Both the position numbers and the translations under genes were made by a program. DNA of 15,728 nucleotides, from the IMG/VR virus record IMGVR_UViG_3300045988_122962, positions 1 through 15,728 of that record, one strand, 5' to 3'. The notes under the pieces are model-generated. The model worked only from the letters and a program-made list of their open reading frames with translations. It made no database searches and was not told the origin of the DNA. The DNA comes from a virus. Below, in pieces: positions 1 to 15,728 of this stretch; position 1 is the stretch's first letter, and each line of letters opens with the position of its first letter.

Positions 1-55
1 CGATCGCCATTCCTCGCAGAGACGTATCCAGGAGGTTGATGCGCGTGCGCTCGAT
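1..55. repeat. Terminal direct repeat, copy 1 (circular-closure overlap)
   Basis: Bases 1-55 (cgatcgccattcctcgcagagacgtatccaggaggttgatgcgcgtgcgctcgat) are identical to 15674-15728. A minus-strand reading frame continues across the junction. Confidence 0.95.
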
Positions 56-547
56 GGCCTGTCGGGAGAGCTCGGTGTAGCCACCGAACGTCTTGATTGG
101 CGTCGAGCGCTTCTTGGTGGTGACCTTACCGAGCACGAGATCACTGCCTTCGGTGGCCTGCTCGTTCACGGCCAGCGTGTTCGTCGCGAGCTCGGTGAAA
201 TCGAGCTCCATTCCCTCGGAGGGCAGGGGACCGGTCGAGAACAGCCCTGCGAGGATGTTGGGCTTGTCGACAATGCGAGTCAGGTCCTTCACCCATTCGG
301 GGTAGACAATCGTAGCATCTGCGCCCGTCGTCGCGCCGTTGAAGGCTCGCGTCTGGAGGCGAGAGATTTCCTCTCGGTAGGCTTCGTCGGTCAGGAGGGC
401 CTTCAAGGCCGCGCCGGGGCTTCGGGTGTCGGCGCGAGTCTCGGCGGGAGTCATATCGGCGAGAGCGGCGCGCTGTTCGATTGCGGTCAGGTCGGCGCGC
501 AGGTCGGCGAGGTCGGAGGCGAGCGCGTAGGCGGGCGTTTCAGTCAT
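1..547 (-). CDS. Major capsid protein, N-terminal part, with candidate independent start ATG at 547-545
   Basis: I checked every in-frame triplet from 547 to 2 by hand and found no stop. The sequence starts MTETPAYALASDLADLRADLTAIEQRAALADMTPAETRAD... (coiled-coil, delta-domain-like) and continues ...TFGGYTELSRQAIERTRINLLDTSLRGMAIAAGQ into 15683. A capsid-only product would be 547+542 = 1089 nt, or 362 aa. Confidence 0.85.
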   Translation of the reverse strand, partial: MTETPAYALASDLADLRADLTAIEQRAALADMTPAETRADTRSPGAALKALLTDEAYREEISRLQTRAFNGATTGADATIVYPEWVKDLTRIVDKPNILAGLFSTGPLPSEGMELDFTELATNTLAVNEQATEGSDLVLGKVTTKKRSTPIKTFGGYTELSRQAIERTRINLLDTSLRGMAI

Positions 548-1045
548 GATTTTCCTTTCGGTTTGGGTTTGTTCGTTGCGGACTTCGGTAATCGCCGCGT
601 TGTGATACGCGGGCCAGGGGACAAGCGAGACTTCACGGAGGGCGAGCGTCTTGATTGTCGTGTGGGTGCCCTTGTCGTCTTCGCGCGCCTCGGTTTCGAG
701 GGGCATGAATCCAATGGACAGACGGTCAATTACGCCGTCTCGCACGAGCTCGTATGCGTCTCGCGCGGTTTGGGTATCGGAGAATCGCGCGGCGACCTCG
801 ATGCCTGCCTCTGTTTCGAGTACATCCGTGATGAGGCCTATCGGCTCGTCGTGCCTGTACACGAGCTTCAGGCTGGTGTCTGATTCGTCGCGTGGCGCGA
901 GGGCACCCGGCGCGATCGTCTCGAAATACCCGTCAAATAGCTCGATTTCGACGCCGTAGGGGACGGCGAGGCCGCGCACGGTGCGCGGTTCGTCGGTTTC
1001 GCGCCCGGCGGCTACCTGAAATTCGCGTGTCTGGAGATCATTCAT
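548..1045 (-). CDS. Prohead (capsid maturation) protease domain, HK97/S78-type, in frame with and uninterrupted from the capsid gene
   Basis: ATG at 1045-1043 overlaps the portal stop (ATGAATGA). My translation is MNDLQTREFQVAAGRETDEPRTVRGLAVPYGVEIELFDGYFETIAPGAL...LVYRHDEPIGLITD...DGVIDRLSIGFMPLE...LREVSLVPWPAYHNAAITEV. The RHDxPIG, LSIGF and EVSLVxxPAY motifs are typical of HK97 gp4-family proteases. There is no stop codon between 1045 and 547 (checked triplet by triplet). Confidence 0.8.
551..559 (-). promoter_or_regulatory. Internal Shine-Dalgarno-like site (GAAAGGAAA) upstream of the capsid ATG at 547
   Basis: The minus strand reads GAAAGGAAAATCATG. The AAGGA core lies 5 nt before the ATG. 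The same motif precedes independent genes here (GAAAGGACCTACAGATG at 6803, TGAAAGGAACAGGAACAATG at 8873, AAGGAAGGACTAGTCACATG at 9220). Confidence 0.55.
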
Positions 1046-2174
1046 TGGACGTGTCCTTGATGGGGTCGGCGGCTGGGTCGTTGATGCCTTCGATGAGGCG
1101 CGCGTAGGCGGGCGAGTAGATTCCCGCCTCGATAGCTGTCTTGTGAGTGGCCATGCGCGCGGATGGATTAGCGCGCAGGAGCGCGTCCAGGTTAAATCGA
1201 ACGATCGTTCCACGTGGCAGGATAGCGGTGAGCGTATCCTCAATCTCACGCAGGTAGGCCATGAGCGTCCACCGGATGAAATCGGTCGCTGCATCGTTCA
1301 CGTTTTGGTAGGTGAGGCTGGAGCCGTTGACGGCTGCGAGGAGCATGTGCGCCGGTATGCCGAACATACGCCCGACAGAGAGAACGTCGAACGCGCGGGA
1401 TTCGAGGAATTGGACTTCGCTCGGTGTGAGGTGAAGGGGCGAGTACTTGAGGCCAGCGCCGATGACGGCGACGCCGCCGTCATGGCTGTTCGACTCGTTC
1501 CACGCGCGTTTAGCCTCTTTGGCTTGGGCGGCTGTGATCGGCTGCTCTGTCGACAGGACGCCGGTCGGGACGCCGCCGCCGCTCGTCCACTGGGAGGCAT
1601 ATGCAGCCATGTCGCGCGCACCCTGGAGCGATCGCGCGCACGCCTGGATTGGCCCGAGGCCTTCGGCCTGGCCTGGCACATAGGTCAATCGCAGGTGACG
1701 CAGGTCGTTGGGTTGCCACGTGCGCGATCGCCATTGGACCGTGCGCTCACCCGTTTCACGGTTCAGGTTCGGGACACACTCGGTGGGGTCGAGCACACGC
1801 AGTGAGTTGACACGTCCGTCGCGGTTCCGCCCCACGAGCCAGTATGCGTTTCCACGTAGGGCGAGACTGGCGATAGTCTCGGCGATGAGCGACGTTACGG
1901 TCAGACCGGGTCCCGGCGTCGAGATGATTGTCGGGATGTCTGCGCCTTCGAGCTGGATGCCGTCGCGCCACGCATCGAGGCTGATTTGCTTCCCCGCCGA
2001 CTGGAGGACAGTCACGGCGCGGTAGACAGAATCGATTGCGAGCGCGCCACGCTCGTCGATCGCGCTTGCGGCGCGGCGCGGCGGCGGCGTGATGCCCGGG
2101 AGCACGGGCGCGCCCCCGTCGTCGCGGCGAAAGCCCATGAGTGATGCGATTGAGGCCATAGGCTGATTATGCAT
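1038..2174 (-). CDS. Portal protein (HK97-family type)
   Basis: The long ORF is 1038..2195. The motifs ...LRGNAYWLVGRNRDGRV...GGVPTGVLSTEQPITAAQAKEAKRAW...FLESRAFDVLSVGRMFGIPAHML...YQNVNDAATDFIRWTL... resemble HK97-type portals, and the gene sits between terminase and protease. I prefer ATG 2174 (AGGGAGGG, then an 8-nt spacer) over the TTG at 2195. Confidence 0.85.
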   Translation of the reverse strand: MHNQPMASIASLMGFRRDDGGAPVLPGITPPPRRAASAIDERGALAIDSVYRAVTVLQSAGKQISLDAWRDGIQLEGADIPTIISTPGPGLTVTSLIAETIASLALRGNAYWLVGRNRDGRVNSLRVLDPTECVPNLNRETGERTVQWRSRTWQPNDLRHLRLTYVPGQAEGLGPIQACARSLQGARDMAAYASQWTSGGGVPTGVLSTEQPITAAQAKEAKRAWNESNSHDGGVAVIGAGLKYSPLHLTPSEVQFLESRAFDVLSVGRMFGIPAHMLLAAVNGSSLTYQNVNDAATDFIRWTLMAYLREIEDTLTAILPRGTIVRFNLDALLRANPSARMATHKTAIEAGIYSPAYARLIEGINDPAADPIKDTSNE

Positions 2175-2212
2175 GACTGTTGCCCTCCCTGCCAATTAGG
2201 TGCGACACGTCA

Positions 2213-3619
2213 CTAGTAGATTTGTATCCCCGCGCGCGGCTGGCACGCTGCCCACACGGCGGCGGCGGCGGCTCGGAGTGAGTCGATAGGTCGAGGTGAT
2301 TTCGCGGCGTCGAACGCCTGCACGCCGGATAGCTGTCTGAGCACGACGGCTCCAAGGGCATCATACAGCTCTTGATTTGGGTGATGGACGATGCGCCGCG
2401 CTCGGATGCGGTCGAGCATGAGTTGACATGCCGTCGCGTAATCGCGAGTCGACAGAGTCACGATAGGCTGCCCGGCGGCTTCGAGGTCGGCGGCCAGAGT
2501 TCTCGTCGGCCCCGCCGCGTCGCACCCAATCCACTGATAGCCCACATCCTGCATCTCGGAGATAGCGGACTGCACCCAATCTGTTCCGGGGCCGGACGCG
2601 ATAACGGCAAGGCACACGTCGCCGTCGCCGTCGAGCCAGGCGGCGACGATGGACGCGCCGCTTCTGTCGCTTGCCAGATCAACGCCAACGCAGACGCGCG
2701 ACGGGTCAGGGACCGTCGCAAGTAGCTCGGAGTCCTGGAGAGACGCCCAGACGGTCATGTCAACAACGGCCTCGTCAGTTACCGTTTCGAGGTTGAGAAT
2801 CGAGCGTCTCCAGGCGGCGAGGCTATCACCTTTGAGCGCTCGGATTTTATCGGCGGTCTGGGTATGTCCAAGTGCCGGGTGGAATGAAAGCGTCTCGTCA
2901 CTGTAGGGGTCGGCCTCGGCGGCGGCCTCGTCTGCGCTCCACTCGAAATAGCACATGCGAGAGTTCGGATTGCTAACTGATTCCCGACCCTGTCGAATCA
3001 GCTCATTCAGATACGCGGATTTGTCCGTGCCTTTTGTTGAGACAATCCAGAGTTGCGAGTCTTTAATCGTGAGCTGAGTCGGGTTGATAGCTGTTTCGAG
3101 TGCAAGGCCAGAATCGGCGTCGAAAGCCCACGCCTCGTCTACTGTCACGAGGTGGAGTGAATCGCCGTGAATTGACTTGGGGGTAGGTGCGAATGGCGAA
3201 ATGAATGAGCCACGCTTCAAGTACTCGGTTCTCTCTGCCCCCTGGGAGGCATAGACCCTGAAATAGCCGGGTTTTTTTTCAGCTCCCAATGCGGTATTGA
3301 TTTGCTTCCATCGTTTCCGGGCGTCTTTCCCGGTTTGAGCTGTCATTAGAATTTCATGACGATTGTACGCCATCATACGATCAACCATAATGGCACGCAA
3401 TAGGAATGACTTCCCGGCTTGGCGCGGTACGGTGACGACAACGACGGGATACCTCCAGGCCCCCGGGTCGTTCGGGTCGAGTTCGAGGGCAACGTCGGCA
3501 ACCTGTCGCTGCCAAGGCATGAGCGAGCCGCCCAGGAAAGCGGCGGTTGCGGCGATGCGGGCACCGAACGTTGGGTTGTCCGTGTTGCGCCGCGTTGCAT
3601 ACTTCGGTTCGGCGCTCAT
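2213..3619 (-). CDS. terL: Terminase large subunit
   Basis: 468 aa. It has a Walker A-like VTVPRQAGKSFLLRA, a Walker B-like LHLVTVDEAW, and a C-terminal nuclease-like region (VCVGVDLASDRS...). It lies upstream of the portal and its start overlaps the upstream gene's stop (ATGA at 3619-3616). Confidence 0.9.
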   Translation of the reverse strand: MSAEPKYATRRNTDNPTFGARIAATAAFLGGSLMPWQRQVADVALELDPNDPGAWRYPVVVVTVPRQAGKSFLLRAIMVDRMMAYNRHEILMTAQTGKDARKRWKQINTALGAEKKPGYFRVYASQGAERTEYLKRGSFISPFAPTPKSIHGDSLHLVTVDEAWAFDADSGLALETAINPTQLTIKDSQLWIVSTKGTDKSAYLNELIRQGRESVSNPNSRMCYFEWSADEAAAEADPYSDETLSFHPALGHTQTADKIRALKGDSLAAWRRSILNLETVTDEAVVDMTVWASLQDSELLATVPDPSRVCVGVDLASDRSGASIVAAWLDGDGDVCLAVIASGPGTDWVQSAISEMQDVGYQWIGCDAAGPTRTLAADLEAAGQPIVTLSTRDYATACQLMLDRIRARRIVHHPNQELYDALGAVVLRQLSGVQAFDAAKSPRPIDSLRAAAAAVWAACQPRAGIQIY

Positions 3620-3948
3620 GATGCGGTGAGGGCGTCGCGGGTCAGCTCGGCGAGAGCGGCGTCGAACGCATCGAGCTCGCGGTCGGTCCCCTCGGCGGGG
3701 CGAGGCAGGCTATCGAGTGATTCAAGGACATTCTTCAGGACGTTCGAGGTCGCGACGCTTGGCGCGCCGCCGTTGAGGCTTCGGTCGAGCGCGGCGGCGG
3801 CCTTGATGAGCGCGGCGCGCTTCGCACGCTCGATCGGTCCCAGGACGCCCTTGGCGTCGAGGTCGTCGAACGCCTCGCGGACCGCGGCTTCAATGTCCCC
3901 CGTAGGCGGCGGCGCGACGGGGAACAGTTCGTTAGTCATTTCGTGCAT
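3616..3948 (-). CDS. Putative terminase small subunit (assigned by position)
   Basis: A 110-aa helical, acidic protein immediately upstream of and translationally coupled to terL, and the first gene after the largest non-coding gap. No motif was recognised unambiguously. An alternative start is ATG at 3939. Confidence 0.45.
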   Translation of the reverse strand: MHEMTNELFPVAPPPTGDIEAAVREAFDDLDAKGVLGPIERAKRAALIKAAAALDRSLNGGAPSVATSNVLKNVLESLDSLPRPAEGTDRELDAFDAALAELTRDALTAS

Positions 3949-4360: not shown

Positions 4361-4599
4361 TGCTCGTGCTTCCTCGGGGCGGGGGCGGTGGGGTAGGTCG
4401 AGGCTATTTCGTCGCGCATGGCCCTGGCCAGGGTGGCGATCTGGAGTGCCATCCCGGCGAGCTTGAATTGCGGGCAAGACATGCTGTAGGGCGTGCGTCC
4501 GTTTAGCTGCTCATGTGCGCGCATGGCGGCGGCCTCGATGTCAACTGCTATGTCTGCGACGACGGCGCGAGGGTCTTGGGAGATGGGCGAGTTAGGCAT
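4357..4599 (-). CDS. Hypothetical protein (80 aa)
   Basis: The ORF fills the gap exactly. It overlaps the upstream gene by 8 nt and the HNH gene by ATGA. No family was recognised. Confidence 0.6.
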   Translation of the reverse strand: MPNSPISQDPRAVVADIAVDIEAAAMRAHEQLNGRTPYSMSCPQFKLAGMALQIATLARAMRDEIASTYPTAPAPRKHEQ

Positions 4600-5605
4600 T
4601 GAGCATGAGTTCCTTTGCCTTCGGGTCAGACAGATTCAGGCGCGCCCACGAGCGATAGTGTGCGTCTGGGTACGTCGCGTGCATGTATTCGACGTAGGCG
4701 GGCGGGAAGACAGATTCGGGATTATCGCTGTGTCTGCTTTCCTCTTCCTCTTTGCGCCGCCGCTCGGCGGCGGTTCTCTCTGCATCTGCTACATGCTGCT
4801 GGCGCATGATGGCCTGGTATTTGCACTGATTACAGCGGTCGGGGCTAACAGTGCCATGAGTGCATGTCGTGGCGAGGTAGGTCATGTACGACGGACGGTA
4901 CTTCACTTCGGTAATCTTTCGGCTCGAAATTTTCTGTTCACAGGATGGATGAGGGGCGGCCTTGGCAGCCCCCTCTTCCTGTAGGGAGGGAAGGGGCGTA
5001 CTCATGTCCACATGAGTCGCAATCGGCTTTGGCCGGGCCGCGTTTCGTCGAAGTCGGTAAAGCTGGATGCGGGCGCGCGTCGCGGCGTTGCGCGCGCGGT
5101 CTTCGGCGTCGGAGGCGCGGCGGAAAGCCAGCGTCCAGTCAACAAGGACGCGCTTAACCACTTTGATGACGCCAACCGTCGGCACGCCCATTCGGATGCC
5201 TCCCCGGTGCCATTCGATCACGCCAGCGTCTTCGAGCCACTGGAGGCAGCGCGAGGTGTGACGGAGCGAGTAGCCCGATCGCTTTGCGAGCTGACGTGCG
5301 GTGGTTTGGACGACGGCTGCGAGGTCGCTGCGGGTGTCGTGCGCGAGGATGGCGAGGGTGTCGAGGATTGCGCGCGAGGCTGCGAATTCGCGTCCCCTGA
5401 GCGGTCCCCACCCGATTCGAGACAGGGCGGCCAGGATGGACGTGAAGCTCATGCCAGCGTTGAGGACGCCGCCGCGCGCTTTGGGCGCTGGCACATGCGC
5501 CGGGTTGGCGGCGGCGTCCCCGGTTCGGGGGCCTCGGATAGCGTCGCGCGCGGCGGCGATAAAGTCGGCGCGTTCCTGCTCGGTCCAAGCGGCGACGGCG
5601 CTCAT
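4592..5605 (-). CDS. Winged-helix DNA-binding protein with a Cys cluster; candidate replication initiator
   Basis: 337 aa. The central segment TTARQLAKRSGYSLRHTSRCLQWLEDAGVIEWHRGG looks like a winged-helix domain. Downstream is TTCTHGTVSPDRCNQCKY (possible zinc ribbon) and a basic/acidic tail. It is the only large early protein, and the function is inferred. Confidence 0.8.
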   Translation of the reverse strand: MSAVAAWTEQERADFIAAARDAIRGPRTGDAAANPAHVPAPKARGGVLNAGMSFTSILAALSRIGWGPLRGREFAASRAILDTLAILAHDTRSDLAAVVQTTARQLAKRSGYSLRHTSRCLQWLEDAGVIEWHRGGIRMGVPTVGVIKVVKRVLVDWTLAFRRASDAEDRARNAATRARIQLYRLRRNAARPKPIATHVDMSTPLPSLQEEGAAKAAPHPSCEQKISSRKITEVKYRPSYMTYLATTCTHGTVSPDRCNQCKYQAIMRQQHVADAERTAAERRRKEEEESRHSDNPESVFPPAYVEYMHATYPDAHYRSWARLNLSDPKAKELMLNA

Positions 5606-5805
5606 GAGTGCGTTTCCACCATATAGCGGATTGCAACTGTCACATAGCAGTGCAGTAGCTTGATCTTTTGAGCGCGGTCTTTCGGGCGCATACGCTTAGC
5701 GCCGGTTACTCCCATGTTGGCGGCGTCCTCGGCGAGCTGGAGGCTCACGGCCTGTGCTTTGCGCAGTAGCGAACGGACGATAGCTGCATCTGAATTCGAG
5801 ATCAT
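5602..5805 (-). CDS. Hypothetical protein (67 aa)
   Basis: The internal ATG at 5805 forms ATGA overlaps at both ends (5805-5802 and 5605-5602). The sequence is MISNSDAAIVRSLLRKAQAVSLQLAEDAANMG... The 134-aa extension (to 6006) overlaps two better genes. Confidence 0.55.
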   Translation of the reverse strand: MISNSDAAIVRSLLRKAQAVSLQLAEDAANMGVTGAKRMRPKDRAQKIKLLHCYVTVAIRYMVETHS

Positions 5806-5999
5806 GAATCTTGCTCCTCGTGCTTGTTGGCCTCGTACCGATGTTGCCAGACGCACGAGGCGATGGCTGCGACAGTCAGTGTCGGGACGGTGACTGGCCA
5901 CGGCAGGTACATTGTCACACATGCGATAAGCGCGGCGGTGAAGGCCGCGATTGTTATGAGCGCGGCGGCGAATTGAATCCAGTCGATGCGGTATTTCAT
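5802..5999 (-). CDS. Small membrane protein (65 aa, two predicted TM helices)
   Basis: Two hydrophobic spans are present: WIQFAAALITIAAFTAALIACVTMY and VPTLTVAAIASCVW. ATGA overlaps occur at both ends. Confidence 0.65.
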   Translation of the reverse strand: MKYRIDWIQFAAALITIAAFTAALIACVTMYLPWPVTVPTLTVAAIASCVWQHRYEANKHEEQDS

Positions 6000-6412
6000 T
6001 CTTCATCCTCCAGATTGAAGGCGGATTCCAGGTTGGCTGTCATGCGCTCCAAGTTTCCGTGCATGACGGATAGCTCATAGCCGACAACCTCGAAGGTTGA
6101 GCTATTCAACTGGTCAATGATTTCGTTGAGCGATTCCTTTAGCTTGCGCAGCTCGTCGGCGGTCTGCTTTGCTGATGCGCTCATGAGCGTGGTCTCATCG
6201 CGTGTCTCAACTGTCAGACGAATGGGAACACCGGCGGCGGCGAGCTGTTCGAGGTCTGCGAGCGCCCACCGTGTTTGTCCCGTCATGCATCGGCTTAGCT
6301 TATTAGGCGAGAAGCCAGCGCGCACGGCGAACGTTGTCTGACTGACGCCTGAACGCTTGATATGCGCTCGGACCGCATCTGTGATCTTGGTCTGGTATCC
6401 CATGCGTGACAT
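5996..6412 (-). CDS. Helix-turn-helix DNA-binding protein with a C-terminal coiled coil
   Basis: VSQTTFAVRAGFSPNKLSRCMTGQTRWALADLEQLA resembles an XRE/Cro-type HTH. The C-terminal half is heptad-like (ELRKLKESLNEIIDQLN). Confidence 0.75.
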   Translation of the reverse strand: MSRMGYQTKITDAVRAHIKRSGVSQTTFAVRAGFSPNKLSRCMTGQTRWALADLEQLAAAGVPIRLTVETRDETTLMSASAKQTADELRKLKESLNEIIDQLNSSTFEVVGYELSVMHGNLERMTANLESAFNLEDEE

Positions 6413-6422
6413 GATAGGTCAT

Positions 6423-6803
6423 TTAATTGGTGTAGGCAAGTTCTGGCTTGGTCCCCGTCATGCGCTCGATCTCGGTGCGCGCGCGTGCGACGGCGGCGAG
6501 GTGTGCGCTCCACGGGAGCGCGGCGGCCATGTCGGGGCGGCGTCGGCGATACGCGCTCTCGGAGGGCTCAACGCGGATGACATCGCCCGTTAGGATGTGC
6601 GCTTCAATGCACTCGCGTTCGACGGCTTTAGCTGTCGATTCGAGCCGGTCGAGTAGGGCGAGGATTTCGTCTGGGTTCCCGGGCGCGCGCGCGGCGCGCT
6701 CGTAATTGGAGATAGAACGTTGAGTCACGTTGATGAGGCGCGCTAGGTCGGCTTGTGAGATTCCTAGCGCGCATCGGCGGGTGAGCAATTCGGCGGCGAA
6801 CAT
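6423..6803 (-). CDS. XRE-family helix-turn-helix transcriptional regulator
   Basis: LLTRRCALGISQADLARLINVTQRSISNYERAARAP is a textbook HTH_3 pattern. The RBS GAAAGGA lies 8 nt upstream of ATG 6803. Confidence 0.85.
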   Translation of the reverse strand: MFAAELLTRRCALGISQADLARLINVTQRSISNYERAARAPGNPDEILALLDRLESTAKAVERECIEAHILTGDVIRVEPSESAYRRRRPDMAAALPWSAHLAAVARARTEIERMTGTKPELAYTN

Positions 6804-6870: not shown

Positions 6871-7284
6871 TCAGTCGTTGAAGTACTTCGCCGCGCGGTC
6901 GGGGTCGATCGCGTCGAGGACCGTAACGATTGCGTCGAGGGAGGCGTCGCCGGGCGTGAGGCTGACGGCCTCGCAATCTGCGTAGATGCGGTTGGCCATA
7001 CGGTCGGCGGCCAGCGCGTCGGTCACGCCGTTGATAATCGTCGCGCTTTCGGCGCGGAATCCGTTCGCGGCGAGGTAAAGCCCGGCTTCACCGCTGGAGT
7101 GGTAACGGGCGGCGGCCTCGTACAGGGACTCGCGCAGTTCGATCGCTTCGGCGTCGTCGCCGGGAATCGCCTTCGCAAAGTATTCGGCGATGTCTTCGCC
7201 GTCACTGGCCTTGTCGAGGATGAGCGCAGGCGCGTAGCCCTTGTTGCTGTTCTCGTCGGTGATCCAGGTGATTGTGTTGGACAT
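6871..7284 (-). CDS. Acidic hypothetical protein (137 aa)
   Basis: The reading frame is clean, with RBS GCGAAAGGCAAGACAATG. By my count it has 25 Asp+Glu and 10 Lys+Arg. No family was recognised. Confidence 0.75.
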   Translation of the reverse strand: MSNTITWITDENSNKGYAPALILDKASDGEDIAEYFAKAIPGDDAEAIELRESLYEAAARYHSSGEAGLYLAANGFRAESATIINGVTDALAADRMANRIYADCEAVSLTPGDASLDAIVTVLDAIDPDRAAKYFND

Positions 7285-7363: not shown

Positions 7364-7816
7364 TCAGAATGATTCCAACTTTCTGAGACGTGCATCATAA
7401 TCGGCATGTTCCCGGTCTCGCGTCGACCGTAGATCGCCGATCTCGTGCCCAATGCCTTTGAATTCTCTCGCGAGGCTTTCCACGCTGTGACGGGCAATGA
7501 GTACGTCGGCGGCGCTCTTGACCTGCTCTGCCTCGATGCGACGCACGCTCTCGCCACTGGCTTCAAGGGCCTTTTCAATACGGGTGATTGTATCCCCGTG
7601 CGCGGAAAGCGTATCTTCCATGCGCGCGATGCGGTCGGCGGCCTCGGCGGTCTTCGCGTCCGTCCGAGTGACGGCGGCGGCGAGGCTGGAGCCCTGATCG
7701 GGACTGACCTGCTCGCGGATGCGTCTTGCTTGTATGAGTGTCGCAATTGATGCGACGACGGCGGATAGACCGGACAGGCCGCCGAGGGCTGTGATAACCT
7801 CGGCGGCCTGTCCCAT
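7364..7816 (-). CDS. Membrane-anchored coiled-coil protein (150 aa), lysis-cassette accessory candidate
   Basis: The internal ATG at 7816 overlaps the holin stop (TAATG), with AAGGGGG upstream. An N-terminal TM span (VITALGGLSGLSAVVASIATLI) is followed by a long charged helical region. The 208-aa extension overlaps the holin. Confidence 0.7.
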   Translation of the reverse strand: MGQAAEVITALGGLSGLSAVVASIATLIQARRIREQVSPDQGSSLAAAVTRTDAKTAEAADRIARMEDTLSAHGDTITRIEKALEASGESVRRIEAEQVKSAADVLIARHSVESLAREFKGIGHEIGDLRSTRDREHADYDARLRKLESF

Positions 7817-8040
7817 TATTGGCCCCCTTGGGGGACGTGCGCGATCGCCGTGACATTGCCCAGGACGGCGGCGGCGAGAGCGACCCAGAGCGGCGCGACC
7901 TGCGCCTCGATTCGCCCATATGCGACGAGGAGCGCAACGGCGGCGAGAATCACACCATACGCCCAGCGTCGCACAGTGGGCGTGAGCCATGAGATCGGCT
8001 GCGGAGTCGCGTTTGCGGCGTGCTTCGGCGTGTCACTCAT
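7816..8040 (-). CDS. Holin (74 aa, two TM helices)
   Basis: ATG at 8040 lies 2 nt after the endolysin stop. The sequence is MSDTPKHAANATPQPISWLTPTVRRWAYGVILAAVALLVAYGRIEAQVAPLWVALAAAVLGNVTAIAHV. Size, topology and position are typical of actinophage holins. Confidence 0.75.
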   Translation of the reverse strand: MSDTPKHAANATPQPISWLTPTVRRWAYGVILAAVALLVAYGRIEAQVAPLWVALAAAVLGNVTAIAHVPQGGQ

Positions 8041-8042
8041 GG

Positions 8043-8873
8043 TCAGAACGCCTCTCGGTTGAGCGCGGCCTGGAGCTTGGAGACGGTCTCCATGCCAACG
8101 TATCCGTCGACCGTCGCGCCAACGCGAGCCTGGAGCGCACACGCGGTGTCATAGCCCGCGTATCCGTCGACCGTCGCGCCAACGCGAGCCTGGAGCGCGC
8201 GAATGAGCTGCGAGCCGCCGCCGTCGCCCACCCACTCCCAAGACGCCTCGGACGCAGCGGGATAGAGCACGCGGTTGTGGGCGAGCTGTTCGGACACAAT
8301 GCCGTCCATCGGCGTACCAAGATATGCCTGGAGAGCACAGGTTGTGAGCGGTCCCCATACGCCGTCTTCGGCGACGCCGGGAGCGGGCGGCGTCGGCCAC
8401 GCCGGGGGCACGTCGACGCCGGCATTGATCTCGTTTGCTCGGTTGGAGACCCAGTCGAGGGAGTTTGTGTAGCGACCGGGGCAGGCCGTGGCGAACCAAG
8501 TGGAGTGTCCTGATAGGGAGAGCCCGCCCCATTCGGCGCGGATTGCGGCGACGAGCTGAGCCACGGTCTCGTAATCCTCGTCCGAGGCCTCGGGACGACA
8601 CTCAATGCCGATCGTTCGCATGTTATTCCCGGCACAGTGCCAGGCGCGATCGTAATCATGCACGAGCTGGGTCACGCGCTCGGCGCTTGCCACGTAATGC
8701 GCCGAGGTCGACGCCGCGCCTCGGTTCTGCGACAGGTAATTGACGACGCCGTCGTGAGACTGACCGTCGACGCCCCAATGATGCAGGACGATTCCGATAG
8801 GATCGCCGCCGGGGCGTCCCTCGTCGAAATTAGGTGACCAATTGGTGTCGGTCACTGCGCTATTGACTGTCAT
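8043..8873 (-). CDS. Endolysin: N-acetylmuramoyl-L-alanine amidase (Amidase_2/PGRP type) with C-terminal repeated wall-binding-like motifs
   Basis: Amidase_2-like motifs are present: IVLHHWG, SAHYVAS, AWHCAGNNMRTIGIEC, GHSTWFATACPG. The C-terminus has three xxVDGxxGxxTxxALQ-like units (EDGVWGPLTTCALQAYLG; ALQARVGATVDGYAGYDTAC; ALQARVGATVDGYVGMETVSKLQ). Confidence 0.9.
   Translation of the reverse strand: MTVNSAVTDTNWSPNFDEGRPGGDPIGIVLHHWGVDGQSHDGVVNYLSQNRGAASTSAHYVASAERVTQLVHDYDRAWHCAGNNMRTIGIECRPEASDEDYETVAQLVAAIRAEWGGLSLSGHSTWFATACPGRYTNSLDWVSNRANEINAGVDVPPAWPTPPAPGVAEDGVWGPLTTCALQAYLGTPMDGIVSEQLAHNRVLYPAASEASWEWVGDGGGSQLIRALQARVGATVDGYAGYDTACALQARVGATVDGYVGMETVSKLQAALNREAF
8099..8198. repeat. 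Tandem 60-bp duplication inside the endolysin gene
   Basis: cgtatccgtcgaccgtcgcgccaacgcgagcctggagcgc at 8099-8138 recurs exactly at 8159-8198 (40/40 identity, 60-bp period). It encodes ALQARVGATVDGY twice. Confidence 0.9.
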
Positions 8874-9224: not shown

Positions 9225-10871
9225 CTAGTCCTTCCTTGTCGGGTTTGGAGTGAGTGCGAGCTGAGTCGTCCAGCTCGTCGGTGTGATCGTGTGGGACACT
9301 TGAGAGATGAGGGCGGCGACCCGCTCTCCACGATACTCGACGGCGACCGCACTTACTGGGTCTATGGTTGACGCGAGCGCCATATAGGGGCCCCGCTTGT
9401 CGGGACCCGTCTCGTGCGCCGGGCGCAAAGTCACGCTACTCGGCGTCGGGTCGCTTGCCGTCGCGGTGATGTAACGCCGCGCGGTTTCTTCCAGCTTCGC
9501 GGCGGGTAGGGTCACGTCGAGCTGGACGCTGGTACCACCCCAGACGGCGGCGGCTGTCGGCTCGTCTACCGTGGTGTCTGTGTCGTCGGCCTCCCACTCG
9601 CTGCGCTCGGCGTCCCATCGCGCGGCGTGATTGTGCAGCGTGACATGAGCGATGGCGTCGGACGCCGCCCACGAGACGCCAACGCCGGTGTAGGACAGGA
9701 CCCGGCGGACTGGGTCGCTCGGCGCTGCGTCGGTGAGCCGTAGGACGGGCGTTGTTGGACGCTCGGTCCTGACGAGAACCCAGCCGTTGCGTGCGACAGA
9801 CCATGAGCCGAGGACCGACGCTGTGAGGGCGTCGAGATGCTTGGCCAGGCTTGTTTCCCAGACGGTCGGCGGGACAGTTACGCCAGTCAGCATACTGTCA
9901 AGGGAGTAGGTGAGGTCTCGGCAGGACTTGATGATTCTGTCAAGGCGCAGGAACCAGTTTTCGCTCCCGTCGCCGGTGTCTGACTTCGCGCCGTATCGAG
10001 TGGTTGCAGCCAACCGAGCGACGCTATCAGACGCGGTCAGAGTGACTTCGTAGCTGATGCGCCCGCCTGGCTTCCTCGGTGTGATCTGTAGATCGGTCAG
10101 ATAACCCGAATAGACGAGCTCGCGCGTCGGCCAGTGGATGAGTCGAACTGGCGTGCCGTGGCTCATACCCGTTGTGCGCGGCGCAAGAGCGTTGATCGCG
10201 CGCGCCGTGAGAGTGCCAACCGTCCCCGTGAGGGCGGGCCCTGTCGCGTCGACGCCGCGTGTGACGGCGATTTCCGTGCATGGACCCGTGATGTCCTGCC
10301 AGGCCTCGGACGCGCCGTTTCCGCTGCCAAGCCACGCGCGGGTATCCCATGCGCCCCGGTCCCATTGGAGATAGGTCATGTTTTCCGCGCCGCGCGTCCA
10401 GGCTTCTCGATTCCACCGTGATTGATTCCACCGTAGCCCATCGAGGCCTTGCAGCGGGTAATAGGCTTGGAGACTGAGTACGTCGCAGGGCCTCGGATTT
10501 TCAGGCATGAGCGTATTGTCTGTGATTTCCAGGCGCTCGACGATGCCCGATTCGAGGCCGGTGATCTCGATTTCCATGCGTGCGCCGAATCGATCGGATG
10601 ACGCTGTGCGCTCATAGATCGGGCCTCTGCCTGCACGCGCGGCGGAATGGCCAATGCGGATGACTGCGATTTTGCCGGGAGCGGCGGTGCGGATGCGGAT
10701 GCTGACGGTGATCTTGTGGCCGGGCGTGAGGCGGTCGCAGGCGATCACGAGCGATCGCGCGCCTGGGTTGAGCGAGTACTGGTAGCGTCCGCCGCCGAGG
10801 TTTTGGACGCGAGCGCCGGACCAGTCGCCGAGTATCGGAGGGGGCAGGAGAGTCGGCATGAGGGGGGTCAC
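9225..10871 (-). CDS. Minor tail protein (548 aa); distal-tail (Dit)-like region with N- and C-terminal extensions
   Basis: It lies directly after the tape measure (GTGA overlap; alternative ATG at 10859). It contains a Trp-rich WNQSRWNREAWTRG...WDRGAWDTRAW segment. IAVTRGVDATGP...GTLTARAINALAP...GTPVRLIHW...LVYSGYLTDLQI...EVTLTASDSVARL resembles phage distal tail proteins. Confidence 0.75.
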   Translation of the reverse strand: MTPLMPTLLPPPILGDWSGARVQNLGGGRYQYSLNPGARSLVIACDRLTPGHKITVSIRIRTAAPGKIAVIRIGHSAARAGRGPIYERTASSDRFGARMEIEITGLESGIVERLEITDNTLMPENPRPCDVLSLQAYYPLQGLDGLRWNQSRWNREAWTRGAENMTYLQWDRGAWDTRAWLGSGNGASEAWQDITGPCTEIAVTRGVDATGPALTGTVGTLTARAINALAPRTTGMSHGTPVRLIHWPTRELVYSGYLTDLQITPRKPGGRISYEVTLTASDSVARLAATTRYGAKSDTGDGSENWFLRLDRIIKSCRDLTYSLDSMLTGVTVPPTVWETSLAKHLDALTASVLGSWSVARNGWVLVRTERPTTPVLRLTDAAPSDPVRRVLSYTGVGVSWAASDAIAHVTLHNHAARWDAERSEWEADDTDTTVDEPTAAAVWGGTSVQLDVTLPAAKLEETARRYITATASDPTPSSVTLRPAHETGPDKRGPYMALASTIDPVSAVAVEYRGERVAALISQVSHTITPTSWTTQLALTPNPTRKD

Positions 10872-13153: not shown

Positions 13154-13306
13154 TCATCCCTTCTGCGCCTCGGCGCGGTCCTGGAGTAGGTCGAGGATGG
13201 CGTGTGCATCCTCGACGGTGAGCTTTTCGCGCGCCTCCCACGGCGGAATACCAGCGTCCACGGCTAGAATCGCCAGGACTGGAGCGAGGGAGGACGCGCC
13301 GCTCAT
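13154..13306 (-). CDS. Tail assembly chaperone, downstream (T-like) segment; either a separate 50-aa ORF or a -1 frameshift extension
   Basis: The ORF is MSGASSLAPVLAILAVDAGIPPWEAREKLTVEDAHAILDLLQDRAEAQKG. Its ATG (13306-13304) overlaps the upstream TGA. It is in the -1 frame relative to 13303..13548, and a GGGGGAA run lies at 13312-13306. It is below the ORF-track size cutoff. Confidence 0.5.
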   Translation of the reverse strand: MSGASSLAPVLAILAVDAGIPPWEAREKLTVEDAHAILDLLQDRAEAQKG

Positions 13307-13548
13307 TCCCCCGCCGGATTGGCTTCGCTCACGAGTGCGGTAGCCTCGTCCATCGTGAGGTCAACTGCGGCGGCGTAGGCGTCGTCGCGAGTTGCATGGC
13401 CGCCGCGTCGGTAAAGCATGATGGCACACATCGCGATCATAGGACCGGCGAGCATCCCACCCGCTTCGGGGTCGAATGCGGTGATGGGCTGACCGGTCTT
13501 GCGCTCGTAGTAGTCGAGGTCGCCGAGAGTCATTGCTTGCAGGTTCAT
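13303..13548 (-). CDS. Tail assembly chaperone (G-like, 81 aa)
   Basis: It occupies the chaperone position upstream of the tape measure (the 13154..13306 T-like ORF lies between them). MTLGDLDYYERKTGQPITAFDPEAG...MIAMCAIMLYRRGG resembles actinophage tail assembly chaperones. The RBS is AAGGAATGAAATG. Confidence 0.7.
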   Translation of the reverse strand: MNLQAMTLGDLDYYERKTGQPITAFDPEAGGMLAGPMIAMCAIMLYRRGGHATRDDAYAAAVDLTMDEATALVSEANPAGE

Positions 13549-15131: not shown

Positions 15132-15728
15132 TCACGCGCCGATCTTCAGGGGCACGAGGCCGGACGGGATTTCGACGGCCACGGCCCCGTAGCGGTAGAC
15201 GGAGAACTGCTTACTGAGGTTGATGATGTTCTCGTCCTGGAGCTGGACGACGGGCGTCTCGTAGCTTCGCACGGCCTCGCGGTTGTAGAACGCGCCGACG
15301 ATGCCTGCGCCCATCTGCCCGGGCGTCGCGCGCAGGTTGCAGGTGACGGGCACGTCGAGGATGACACCGGAAAGTCCCTTCGCGTCCGTCGTGCCGATGG
15401 TGTTGGCCGGGTTTTCGGCGGCGCGCATGAGGGGCCGTCCGTCGGTGCCGGTGAGGCCGGTGAGCGCCTTGAAGGTGGCGAGGTCGACAACGAGGCCGTC
15501 GAGGGTGAGGCCCTGGTCGGCGAACTTGGCGGCGGCGTCGATGAACAGGCTGGAGATGTCTGCCCAGTTGAGCGCGGTCGCTGCCTTGGAGGAGGCGAGC
15601 TTGTTGGTGTCCTGTCCCTTGACACCCTCGGCGAATTGCGCTGCGAAATAGGCGGCGCTGCGCTGCCCGGCGGCGATCGCCATTCCTCGCAGAGACGTAT
15701 CCAGGAGGTTGATGCGCGTGCGCTCGAT
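15132..15728 (-). CDS. Major capsid protein (HK97 fold), C-terminal part; the ORF enters from position 1 by circular wrap
   Basis: The translation (...LVVDLATFKALTGLTGTDGRPLM...AFYNREAVRSYETPVVQLQDENIINLSKQFSVYRYGAVAVEIP...) looks like an HK97-type capsid C-terminus. The stop is TGA at 15134-15132. The frame has no stop up to the window end and matches the frame at positions 1-547 (15673 mod 3 = 1; triplet phases agree). Confidence 0.85.
   Translation of the reverse strand: MERTRINLLDTSLRGMAIAAGQRSAAYFAAQFAEGVKGQDTNKLASSKAATALNWADISSLFIDAAAKFADQGLTLDGLVVDLATFKALTGLTGTDGRPLMRAAENPANTIGTTDAKGLSGVILDVPVTCNLRATPGQMGAGIVGAFYNREAVRSYETPVVQLQDENIINLSKQFSVYRYGAVAVEIPSGLVPLKIGA
15674..15728. repeat. 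Terminal direct repeat, copy 2 (circular-closure overlap)
   Basis: Exact 55-bp copy of positions 1-55. This implies a unit length of 15,673 bp. Confidence 0.95.

Follow-up and report, generated by a model that had tools for sequence, protein, structure and literature searches.

A conserved in-frame start predicted inside the protease-capsid fusion gene of a small circular phage

Nested and fused head genes

Nested in-frame protease/scaffold genes are established in phage lambda (C/Nu3) and HSV-1 (UL26/UL26.5). In these genes, and in gp17/gp17.5 of the archaeal virus HFTV1, a long ORF begins with a protease and contains an internal in-frame start from which an N-terminally truncated assembly protein is made. 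The protease of such systems co-assembles into the procapsid at low copy because both products share their C-terminal part. The HFTV1 pair was shown by Ribo-seq and MS (bioRxiv 10.64898/2026.09.13.751334).

Protease-scaffold-capsid fusions have been described as a "particularly unusual" shared trait of the smallest siphoviruses (PMC7302621), and in print this gene class is described as giving a single fusion product (PMC7302621, PMC5513430). A tblastn search returned 140 phage records with at least 80% query coverage and ~40% identity that are annotated "major capsid and protease fusion protein", which is the annotation class named in an earlier note on this DNA. The protease-capsid fusion itself is already known. 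A full-text literature search, from which the subscription literature may differ, found no description of internal or dual initiation in such fusions, in agreement with the earlier claim that this arrangement is uncharacterised; the published fusion descriptions that were found do not discuss the number of protease copies per head.

The gene described here lies in a window of 15,728 nt (the whole stretch of DNA analysed, IMG/VR record IMGVR_UViG_3300045988_122962). Its protein is ~40% identical over 98–99% of its length to the fusions of cluster EE/Orlajensenviridae phages (MrGreen gp5 and Efeko gp6), Curtobacterium phage Barebow and Exiguobacterium phage phiExGM16. Like the cluster EE-type fusions, it has the order S78 protease-linker-HK97 capsid and is encoded just after the portal with a start/stop overlap, and the genome shares their 15–18 kb siphovirus plan without a scaffold gene (PMC7302621). 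The cluster EE phages infect Microbacterium, whereas Actinomyces is the probable host of the window phage, and published accounts of them do not include the internal start, although it was found in them here.

The earlier note had likened the gene to nested lambda C/Nu3, an apt analogy as a precedent for nested in-frame protease and scaffold coding. An internal in-frame start with its own signals is present downstream of the protease at the level of sequence, whereas the products of the known nested systems have been demonstrated. In lambda, HSV and HFTV1 a free scaffolding protein arises as the nested product and the capsid protein has a gene of its own; here the nested frame runs through the HK97-fold capsid to the stop at 15132 and would give a capsid protein with a scaffold-like N-terminus. 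Since the nested frame includes the capsid, the gene is a variant of the nested scheme and not a member of the lambda, HSV or HFTV1 families. The proteases also belong to different families (ClpP/S49-like in lambda C, assemblin in HSV and S78 in the window), and the HSV nested product has a separate promoter whereas the window has an internal Shine-Dalgarno sequence (SD).

HK97 gp4 and gp5 share with this gene the S78 family, the HK97 fold, the portal-protease-capsid order and a scaffold function within the capsid N-terminus (the delta domain), but a stop codon separates the HK97 protease and capsid genes. The HK97 protease reportedly goes to the prohead via its own C-terminal tail; the fusion has a covalent link in place of a targeting tail, and its S78 domain ends 1–5 codons before the SD. 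Retroviral Gag/Gag-Pro(-Pol) is alike in logic, with minority structural subunits that carry a covalent protease extension at a ratio fixed at translation. However, the retroviral extension is C-terminal and arises by frameshifting or readthrough, whereas that of the window is N-terminal and would arise by alternative initiation, and the two are not homologous. P2 gpO likewise combines a protease and an assembly domain in one polypeptide, but only its full-length product is reportedly made and it is not joined to the capsid protein.

The fusion gene and its predicted start sites in the window

The window is a circular phage contig of 15,673 bp with a 55-nt terminal repeat (1–55 = 15674–15728), and the fusion ORF crosses the window ends because of this 55-nt overlap of the circular assembly. 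On the minus strand, 348 codons with zero stops extend from ATG 1045 to base 2, and the whole fusion has 528 aa, comprising 166 aa that precede the internal Met and 362 aa that begin with it (Table 1). Translation and circular reconstruction bear out the stop-free track from 1045 to 2, and on to 15132, that had been read from the sequence before. The genome plan according to PHROG is HNH-TerS-TerL-portal-fusion-...-major tail-TMP-...-endolysin-...-HTH regulators, where the ellipses stand for ORFs with absent or weak PHROG matches. Scans of 20 other ORFs against PHROG matched no separate scaffold gene, as the earlier note had claimed. By the same annotation, the genome has the 15–18 kb size of compact siphoviruses, carries the fusion downstream of the portal and has neither a separate protease gene nor a separate scaffold gene.

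PHROG 2263 matches the fusion end to end. The protease half, which had been assigned to residues 1–166 as an S78-type domain, was recovered as Peptidase_S78 at aa 17–161 (82.1 bits against the Pfam cut-off of 21, profile positions 10–161 of 165). His65 and Ser110 are its putative catalytic pair, as we assume by analogy with His65/Ser114 of HK97 gp4. Queried by sequence against solved structures, the protease domain returned chance matches only. Structure prediction, a step suggested earlier, gave a beta-rich protease domain (aa 22–141) and an HK97-fold capsid in the AF2 model, whose mean pLDDT is only 62.7. The capsid part matched Phage_capsid_4 at aa 295–522 (Pfam, E 5e-9), contains an HK97-type long helix at 338–368, and retrieved HK97 (1ohg), GTA (6tb9) and actinophage capsids in Foldseek with a probability of 1.00 and E ~1e-11. 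The linker varies in both length and sequence among homologues, and the internal SD and start sit within it. The helical region that follows (aa 178–235) is a candidate delta/scaffolding domain from the model. The capsid N-terminus had been described as a coiled-coil delta domain; helices are indeed predicted, but their pLDDT of ~40–63 lends the coiled-coil delta assignment little weight.

Table 1 Features of the fusion gene and its surroundings in the window.
Feature	Position	Strand	Remarks
Portal gene	1038..2174	-	PHROG 12 portal, E 1e-56; directly upstream of fusion, overlaps fusion start
Fusion initiation region	1038..1058	-	AAGGA 1054-1058, 8-nt spacer, ATG 1043-1045
Fusion ORF, 5' part	1..1045	-	Codons 1-348 in full, codon 349 up to its first base; start ATG 1043-1045
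Prohead serine protease domain, Peptidase_S78, aa 17-161	563..997	-	Pfam E 6e-23; PHROG head maturation protease families
Presumed catalytic His65 and Ser110	851-853; 716-718	-	Both invariant in 30 homologues
Disordered linker, Pro/Thr/Glu-rich, aa 144-177	515..616	-	AF2 pLDDT 31-45; alignments
Internal Shine-Dalgarno GAAAGGA	553..559	-	Codons 162-165 GAA AGG AAA; complementary to 16S rRNA 3' end
Internal in-frame ATG, Met167	545..547	-	Predicted N-terminus of 362-aa scaffold-capsid product; Met167 invariant in alignment A1
Helical N-terminal region of predicted nested product, aa 178-235	341..514	-	AF2 helices 178-196, 210-219, 221-235, pLDDT ~40-63
HK97-fold capsid body, from ~aa 236	1..340, then 15135-15673	-	Pfam Phage_capsid_4; Foldseek
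Fusion ORF, 3' part	15132..15673	-	In-frame continuation over circular junction; stop codon 15132-15134
Terminal repeat copy	15674-15728		Duplicates 1-55, no extra sequence

At the junction, the sequence GAAAGGAAAATCATG was confirmed, with GAAAGGA at 559→553 and ATG at 547→545 and a spacer of 5 nt. GAAAGGA is present in three copies in the 15.7-kb genome (both strands), each 5–9 nt before an ATG, and all four copies of GAAAGG are likewise upstream of ATG. The earlier note had stated that the junction has the same SD motif and spacing as free-standing genes; the motif is the same but the spacing is not, since the two free-standing genes with this heptamer, which begin at 6803 and 8873, have spacers of 7 and 9 nt. 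The duplex energy of the internal SD is -8.7 kcal/mol compared with an ORF background of -2.6, and the SD makes use of the rare codon AGG, which accounts for 6% of Arg codons. The ATG of the fusion overlaps the portal stop TGA (1038–1040) as ATGAATGA. That the upstream start at 1045 is devoid of an SD was ruled out by AAGGA 8 nt upstream, although its duplex energy is -4.9 kcal/mol as against -8.7 at the internal start.

Because the upstream start carries AAGGA, the contrast in start strength is real in the window's clade and modest across the family. Specifically, the SD energies in the clade are -4.9 to -6.5 kcal/mol at the upstream start and -8.4 to -8.7 kcal/mol at the junction, whereas the family mean of the upstream SD is moderate (roughly -7 kcal/mol, our own average of per-lineage values), which leaves the direction and size of the product ratio uncertain. 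The junction SD equals or beats the upstream SD in most lineages, and the opposite is seen in Barebow (-9.5 upstream versus -5.7 at the junction). The spacer of the window's clade is short (5 nt after GAAAGGA is equivalent to ~3 nt after a full GGAGG core) and may lower the efficiency of internal initiation. In nearly all lineages the fusion start overlaps the stop of a long preceding ORF (350 codons or more in the loci, the portal in the window).

Conservation of the junction start

Homologous phages were aligned, as the earlier note had proposed, in a set of 31 non-redundant lineages with aa identities from 98% down to 33%. The frame was open, and an SD (≤ -6 kcal/mol) with ATG or GTG was kept at the junction in 28 of the 31 lineages. 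When every alignment column was scanned, the next best column had such a combination in 9 lineages and the remaining columns in 6 or fewer. ATG or GTG alone was present at the junction column in all 31. The mean anti-SD duplex energy was -8.0 kcal/mol at the junction and -2.8 kcal/mol at other in-frame positions (median percentile 2%, 31 lineages). L049 and L051 have only weak SDs (2 of 31 lineages), and no aligned start was found in the locus L057. A junction SD and start were also seen in four cultured phages (MrGreen, Efeko, Barebow and phiExGM16) and at nine loci of bacterial genomes and MAGs.

The SD core is in codon phase 0, 1 and 2 in 8, 6 and 15 lineages, respectively, and the encoded peptides differ among lineages (ER, KG, EG, KE, RED and others). 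The distance from SD to start ranges from 4 to 11 nt, shifted by in-frame indels, and the start is GTG in some lineages. An SD found in all three phases, with changing peptides and a variable spacer, points to selection on the RNA and not on the protein. A similar signal was obtained from 129 sequences (128 family representatives at ≤50% identity and the window protein): an SD-compatible dipeptide followed by 1–4 aa and Met was found in the linker of 90 sequences compared with 15.9 ± 3.5 in shuffles, and in 115 compared with 44.9 ± 4.9 when Met or Val was allowed. Judged from these alignments, conservation of the junction SD and start is far greater than descent or protein constraint would give. 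In each of the 31 lineages, the accessibility of the G-poor junction RNA lies far above the median of the ORF (median percentile 8%); its accessible C/A-rich composition could partly be due to the Pro/Thr-rich linker.

Comparable sites were observed in fusions with little or no detectable sequence similarity. The best in-frame internal SD and ATG is directly after the C-terminal motif of the protease in RRH1 (residue 274), McGonagall (residue 276) and Adaia (residue 162), and in Decurro the second-best is right behind this motif (residue 160). BlueFeather has only a moderate TAAGGAAA with ATG, ~60 aa past the protease. Gordonia phage Emperor was rejected as a further case, as its strongest internal SD and ATG (residue 121) lies ahead of the protease and no SD accompanies its junction Met, and the "coat protein" of Moraxella phage Mcat22, considered as another fusion, turned out to be a separate protease gene. 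We lean, with some reserve, towards an internal start at the protease/capsid boundary being a general feature of protease-capsid fusions in small-genome Actinomycetota phages, kept across deep divergence and perhaps repeatedly evolved. Such a general reading would include the cluster EE relatives, Arthrobacter phages of the AN type, Gordonia CW and Rhodococcus RRH1.

Predicted products, alternatives and significance

We consider it likely that translation of the gene begins at either of two in-frame starts and gives nested products. The central prediction of the earlier note, a functional internal start with a nested capsid product beside the fusion, passed all of the comparative tests that were run. 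In the proposed mechanism, initiation at ATG 1045, with its modest AAGGA and overlap with the portal stop, would give the 528-aa protease-linker-scaffold-capsid polypeptide, while binding of ribosomes to GAAAGGA at 553–559, which is strong and exposed, would lead to initiation at ATG 547 and to a protease-free scaffold-capsid protein of 362 aa. Both products would co-assemble into the procapsid because their capsid body is identical, with the N-terminal extensions facing inward as the HK97 delta domain does. Minority full-length subunits would thereby bring the S78 protease inside without a separate targeting tail, and after assembly the protease would cut off the N-terminal parts of all subunits as well as itself. 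We infer that the two proteins are both produced, with the nested one the more abundant, and that their ratio sets the copy number of the protease.

Alternatively, only the 528-aa fusion is made and each capsid subunit carries its own protease, with the junction SD and Met left unused as a relic of once-separate genes or as an SD-like pause for protease folding. This would accord with the descriptions that treat the gene as one product (PMC7302621, PMC5513430), and the second product is so far a predicted one. By our own rough volume estimate, ~235 protease+delta moieties would take up some 40% of the space in a procapsid of T=4 size; a procapsid built of fusion subunits only would be crowded, though feasible, and hence the second product is not physically obligatory. 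A relic, however, would not outlast divergence to 33% identity in a linker that is otherwise free in length and sequence, and a pause needs no start codon, yet ATG or GTG stands 4–11 nt from the SD in every lineage. The SD changes its codon phase and peptide but stays complementary to 16S rRNA, and the arrangement recurs in unrelated-looking fusions. On balance, production of the fusion alone appears unlikely. Use of both starts with a nested product that is not the bulk subunit seems rather improbable: the fusion would serve as the main building block beside a minor or conditional internal product, or the fusion would cleave itself at the linker and free the protease before assembly. An SD is present at the upstream start as well, which is coupled to the portal gene, its SD is the stronger one in isolates such as Barebow, and the short spacer of the window's clade may weaken the internal start. 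Against this, the junction SD matches or exceeds the upstream SD in most lineages and lies in much more accessible RNA, portal-coupled starts would be expected to be of low output, and the shorter product is in excess in all known nested systems.

The junction also resembles an intergenic junction minus the stop, and the ORF runs over the window ends, as might be seen if adjacent protease and capsid genes had been joined by a sequencing or assembly error through a lost stop or shifted frame. The crossing of the ends is accounted for by the circular overlap. Moreover, an assembly error is ruled out as the origin of the open frame by the same unbroken ORF in over 60 independent metagenome contigs, cultured phages including Sanger/Illumina-finished isolates and bacterial genome contigs, and 128 of 150 family representatives have the fused length. 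Capsid-only proteins of 343–377 aa were considered as unfused relatives, and the three that were checked (P0087, P0137 and P0127) proved to be from cut contigs, which end 24–31 nt upstream of the internal ATG with the upstream frame open and GAAAGGA present. As the cuts fall inside the protease part, these entries represent truncated genes and do not speak for separate ones. An artefactual fusion is accordingly hardly credible, and reading from two starts is the interpretation that we prefer.

The conserved internal start would offer a simple, directly testable explanation of how the protease stays a minority component in these phages. It would tie the small actinophages, in mechanism, to nested protease/scaffold genes like those found in lambda, herpesviruses and archaeal tailed viruses, and would let a minimal genome hold three head-assembly functions in one ORF while keeping two expression levels. 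A suggested design rule for recombinant expression of these capsids is to retain the internal ribosome-binding site. If internal initiation is general, the "fusions" would be nested gene pairs and thus a third class among nested morphogenetic genes, with the major capsid protein as the nested product. The protease copies per procapsid would then be set by the portal-coupled upstream start versus the strong internal start, and the start of the capsid gene would be unannotated in hundreds of deposited phage genomes (several hundred actinophages are suggested).

The fusion gene and its genome

The 55 nt at either end of the window are identical and thereby mark the assembly as circular, with a k-mer overlap; the unique genome comprises 15,673 bp with 63% G+C. 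If the window is treated as linear, the capsid gene is split in any feature count. The contig carries the full gene set of a minimal siphovirus, all on the strand of the fusion, with genes for HNH endonuclease, TerS, TerL, portal, fusion, major tail protein, tape measure protein, endolysin and two HTH regulators; PHROG scans of other window ORFs detected no gene for a scaffold. The remaining ORFs are listed in the table. Since the 548-aa ORF follows the tape measure gene, it probably encodes a minor tail protein or a receptor-binding protein. The 174-aa ORF is probably spurious because of its overlap with the endolysin gene and its lack of matches. The stretch downstream of the endolysin gene, where a holin is expected, is without annotation. 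Two short ORFs, of 81 and 50 aa, occupy the place between the major tail gene region and the tape measure gene where phages usually encode tail assembly chaperones by a programmed frameshift.

Coordinates of features in the window and of fusion ORFs with an additional N-terminal segment in other phages
Feature	Positions	Strand	Remark
Identical ends	1-55 and 15674-15728
Fusion ORF	ATG 1045 to stop 15132-15134	minus	Crosses circular join
Junction GAAAGGA	559-553	minus
Junction ATG	547-545	minus	Met167
337-aa ORF	4592-5605	minus	No PHROG match at E <= 0.001
134-aa ORF	5602-6006	minus	No PHROG match at E <= 0.001
137-aa ORF	6871-7284	minus	No PHROG match at E <= 0.001
208-aa ORF	7364-7990	minus	Marginal tape-measure PHROG match only
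174-aa ORF	7989-8513	plus	No matches; mostly overlaps endolysin gene on opposite strand
Region of the 208-aa and 174-aa ORFs	7364-8043 and 7989-8513		
548-aa ORF	9225-10871	minus	No PHROG match at E <= 0.001
50-aa ORF	13154-13306		Between major tail gene region and tape measure gene
81-aa ORF	13303-13548		Between major tail gene region and tape measure gene
RRH1 (L073) fusion ORF	4439-6424
McGonagall (L076) fusion ORF	1471-3444
Emperor (L077) fusion ORF	2051-3910

As the earlier note had claimed, no stop interrupts the frame from the fusion ATG down to base 2, and the frame continues across the circular join to give 528 codons. Pfam assigned a Peptidase_S78 prohead protease to aa 17-161 (E 6e-23) and Phage_capsid_4 to aa 295-522, while PHROG 2263 matched the protein end to end. 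The AlphaFold2 model, built with 30 homologues as input (mean pLDDT 62.7), folds aa 22-141 into a beta-rich domain, leaves aa 144-177 disordered and has helices at aa 178-196 and 210-235. Its C-terminal body best matches HK97-fold capsid proteins in the PDB (E about 1e-11), among them those of HK97 and the GTA. His65 and Ser110 do not vary within the family, nor does the D206/R208/G211 cluster; speculatively, a maturation cleavage site may lie near this cluster.

Relatives of the fusion and their hosts

The same unbroken ORF is present in 64 IMG/VR loci (98% to 33% identity) and in 140 deposited phage genomes (~40% identity). The latter carry the annotation "major capsid and protease fusion protein", a class that the earlier note had named correctly. 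Bacterial sequences that contain the ORF are MAG contigs of Actinomyces and several chromosomes of Micrococcales and Actinomycetaceae. An assembly artefact as the origin of the fusion is excluded by these many independent sequences; the fusion is real, and its architecture by itself was already known. Protease-scaffold-capsid fusions are common among siphoviruses with very small genomes, namely clusters EE, AN, AX, FE, CW and DM together with RRH1 (Jacobs-Sera et al., PMC7302621; see also PMC5513430).

Among the bacterial loci (L083-L093), close relatives (75% identity) lie on contigs of roughly 15-16 kb binned with Actinomyces MAGs, and Actinomyces is the probable host of the window phage. 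Those at greater distance sit within large chromosomal contigs, from Micrococcales KH10 (1.39 Mb), Pseudolysinimonas, Populibacterium and an Actinomycetaceae MAG, and one Luteimicrobium contig has two copies 17 kb apart. Although cluster EE phages have been described as lytic, integrated elements may exist among the relatives. In metagenome contigs cut within the protease part (L074, 1-24; L081, 1-32; L082, 1-25), automatic gene callers take the junction ATG as the start. Public protein collections consequently contain "capsid-only" entries of 343-377 aa, which were rejected as unfused genes because they are truncation products.

A predicted internal start at the protease-capsid junction

At the junction, GAAAGGA, which is complementary to the 3' end of 16S rRNA, is followed after five bases by the ATG of Met167. 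This Shine-Dalgarno (SD) motif and start are located 1-5 codons past the end of the S78 match, within the disordered linker. The heptamer occurs only three times on both strands of the genome, the other copies being 9 nt before the endolysin start and 7 nt before an HTH regulator start; the motif is thus shared with free-standing genes as the earlier note had stated, but the spacing is not. All four copies of the hexamer GAAAGG lie 6-10 nt upstream of an ATG. The junction SD uses an AGG codon, which accounts for 6% of Arg codons in the genome and 2 of 34 in the fusion ORF. The predicted anti-SD duplex energy is -8.7 kcal/mol, whereas other in-frame positions average -2.6, and the 20-nt stretch around the start has an unpaired probability of 0.025 (ORF median 1e-5).

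In the homologue alignment the junction column holds Met, sometimes Val, while the flanking linker is free in length and sequence. At the nucleotide level, GAAAGGA, AAGGAG, GAGGGAG or AGGAGG precedes ATG/GTG by 4-11 nt in almost every locus. Among 31 non-redundant lineages the mean junction duplex energy is -8.0 kcal/mol (background -2.8; median percentile 2%). When each alignment column of the whole gene was examined for an ATG/GTG preceded by an SD no weaker than -6 kcal/mol, the junction stood alone with 28 of 31 lineages, the next column having 9 and all others 6 or fewer; the conservation that the earlier note had proposed to check is therefore present. The SD and start are likewise present in four cultured phages (MrGreen, Efeko, Barebow and phiExGM16) and at nine bacterial-genome loci (e.g. 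Pseudolysinimonas, ctcGAAAGGAGcacccccgcaGTG). In the clade of at least 70% identity, the core AAGGA and ATG are kept in 23 of 23 distinct sequences, and GAAAGGA in all except L027; the spacer shifts among 5, 8, 10 and 11 nt through in-frame indels. The SD core falls in each of the three codon phases (15, 8 and 6 lineages) and is translated as ER, KG, EG, KE, RED, QED and other peptides. That rRNA complementarity and the start codon are kept while phase, peptide and spacing drift is the outcome expected of selection on a translation initiation region; it would not arise from selection on a protein motif. A protein-level search of 1.84 billion representatives gave 128 fused-length clusters at <=50% identity, or 129 with the window protein; an SD-compatible dipeptide followed after 1-4 residues by Met was found in the linker of 90 (15.9 ± 3.5 in shuffles), and by Met or Val in 115 (44.9 ± 4.9). 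At the sequence level, this conservation is the decisive evidence for the predicted internal start.

The comparison was extended to fusion genes with weak or no BLAST link to that of the window. In RRH1 Orf7 (residue 274), McGonagall gp7 (276) and Adaia gp5 (162), the strongest in-frame internal SD and ATG directly follows the protease C-terminal PAY/PAF...A.V motif. The corresponding site of Decurro gp7 (residue 160) ranks second, BlueFeather has a weaker candidate, and Emperor is an exception. In RRH1 and the Gordonia CW and DM phages, the fusion has an additional hydrophobic, transmembrane-like N-terminal segment before the protease. The strongest site of Emperor (caccGAAAGGAccccaccATG, residue 121) lies between this segment and the protease, a hint that the nested product differs there or that there is a further one.

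Two proposed nested products and alternative readings

The fusion ATG overlaps the portal stop (ATGAATGA), and AAGGA, for which the duplex energy is -4.9 kcal/mol, is located 8 nt before it. In nearly all lineages the fusion start likewise overlaps the stop codon of a long ORF upstream. We propose that two nested products with a common capsid body would co-assemble, the nested product making up the bulk of the shell. Full-length subunits would bring the protease to the shell interior because the capsid N-terminus faces inward, as established for the HK97 delta domain. That both proteins are produced, in what ratio, and where maturation cleavage occurs are inferences. Within the clade of the window, the junction SD exceeds the upstream SD in strength by 2-4 kcal/mol; in the family as a whole this gap is smaller, and a few phages show the reverse. 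The product ratio may also be reversed or conditional. A single product, with the junction SD and ATG as a relic or pause site, is hard to reconcile with a start codon conserved at the junction and an SD independent of codon phase.

The proposed scheme is the same as that of lambda C/Nu3, HSV UL26/UL26.5 and HFTV1 gp17/gp17.5, and merges it with the habit of HK97, in which the scaffold is fused to the capsid protein. The earlier note had considered dual initiation uncharacterised; likewise, the full-text literature searched, which covered few subscription journals, yielded no account of protease-capsid fusions with internal initiation. The kind of gene itself is known, and strong comparative evidence from sequences suggests that the nested-capsid arrangement would be a new variation on the nested protease/scaffold scheme.
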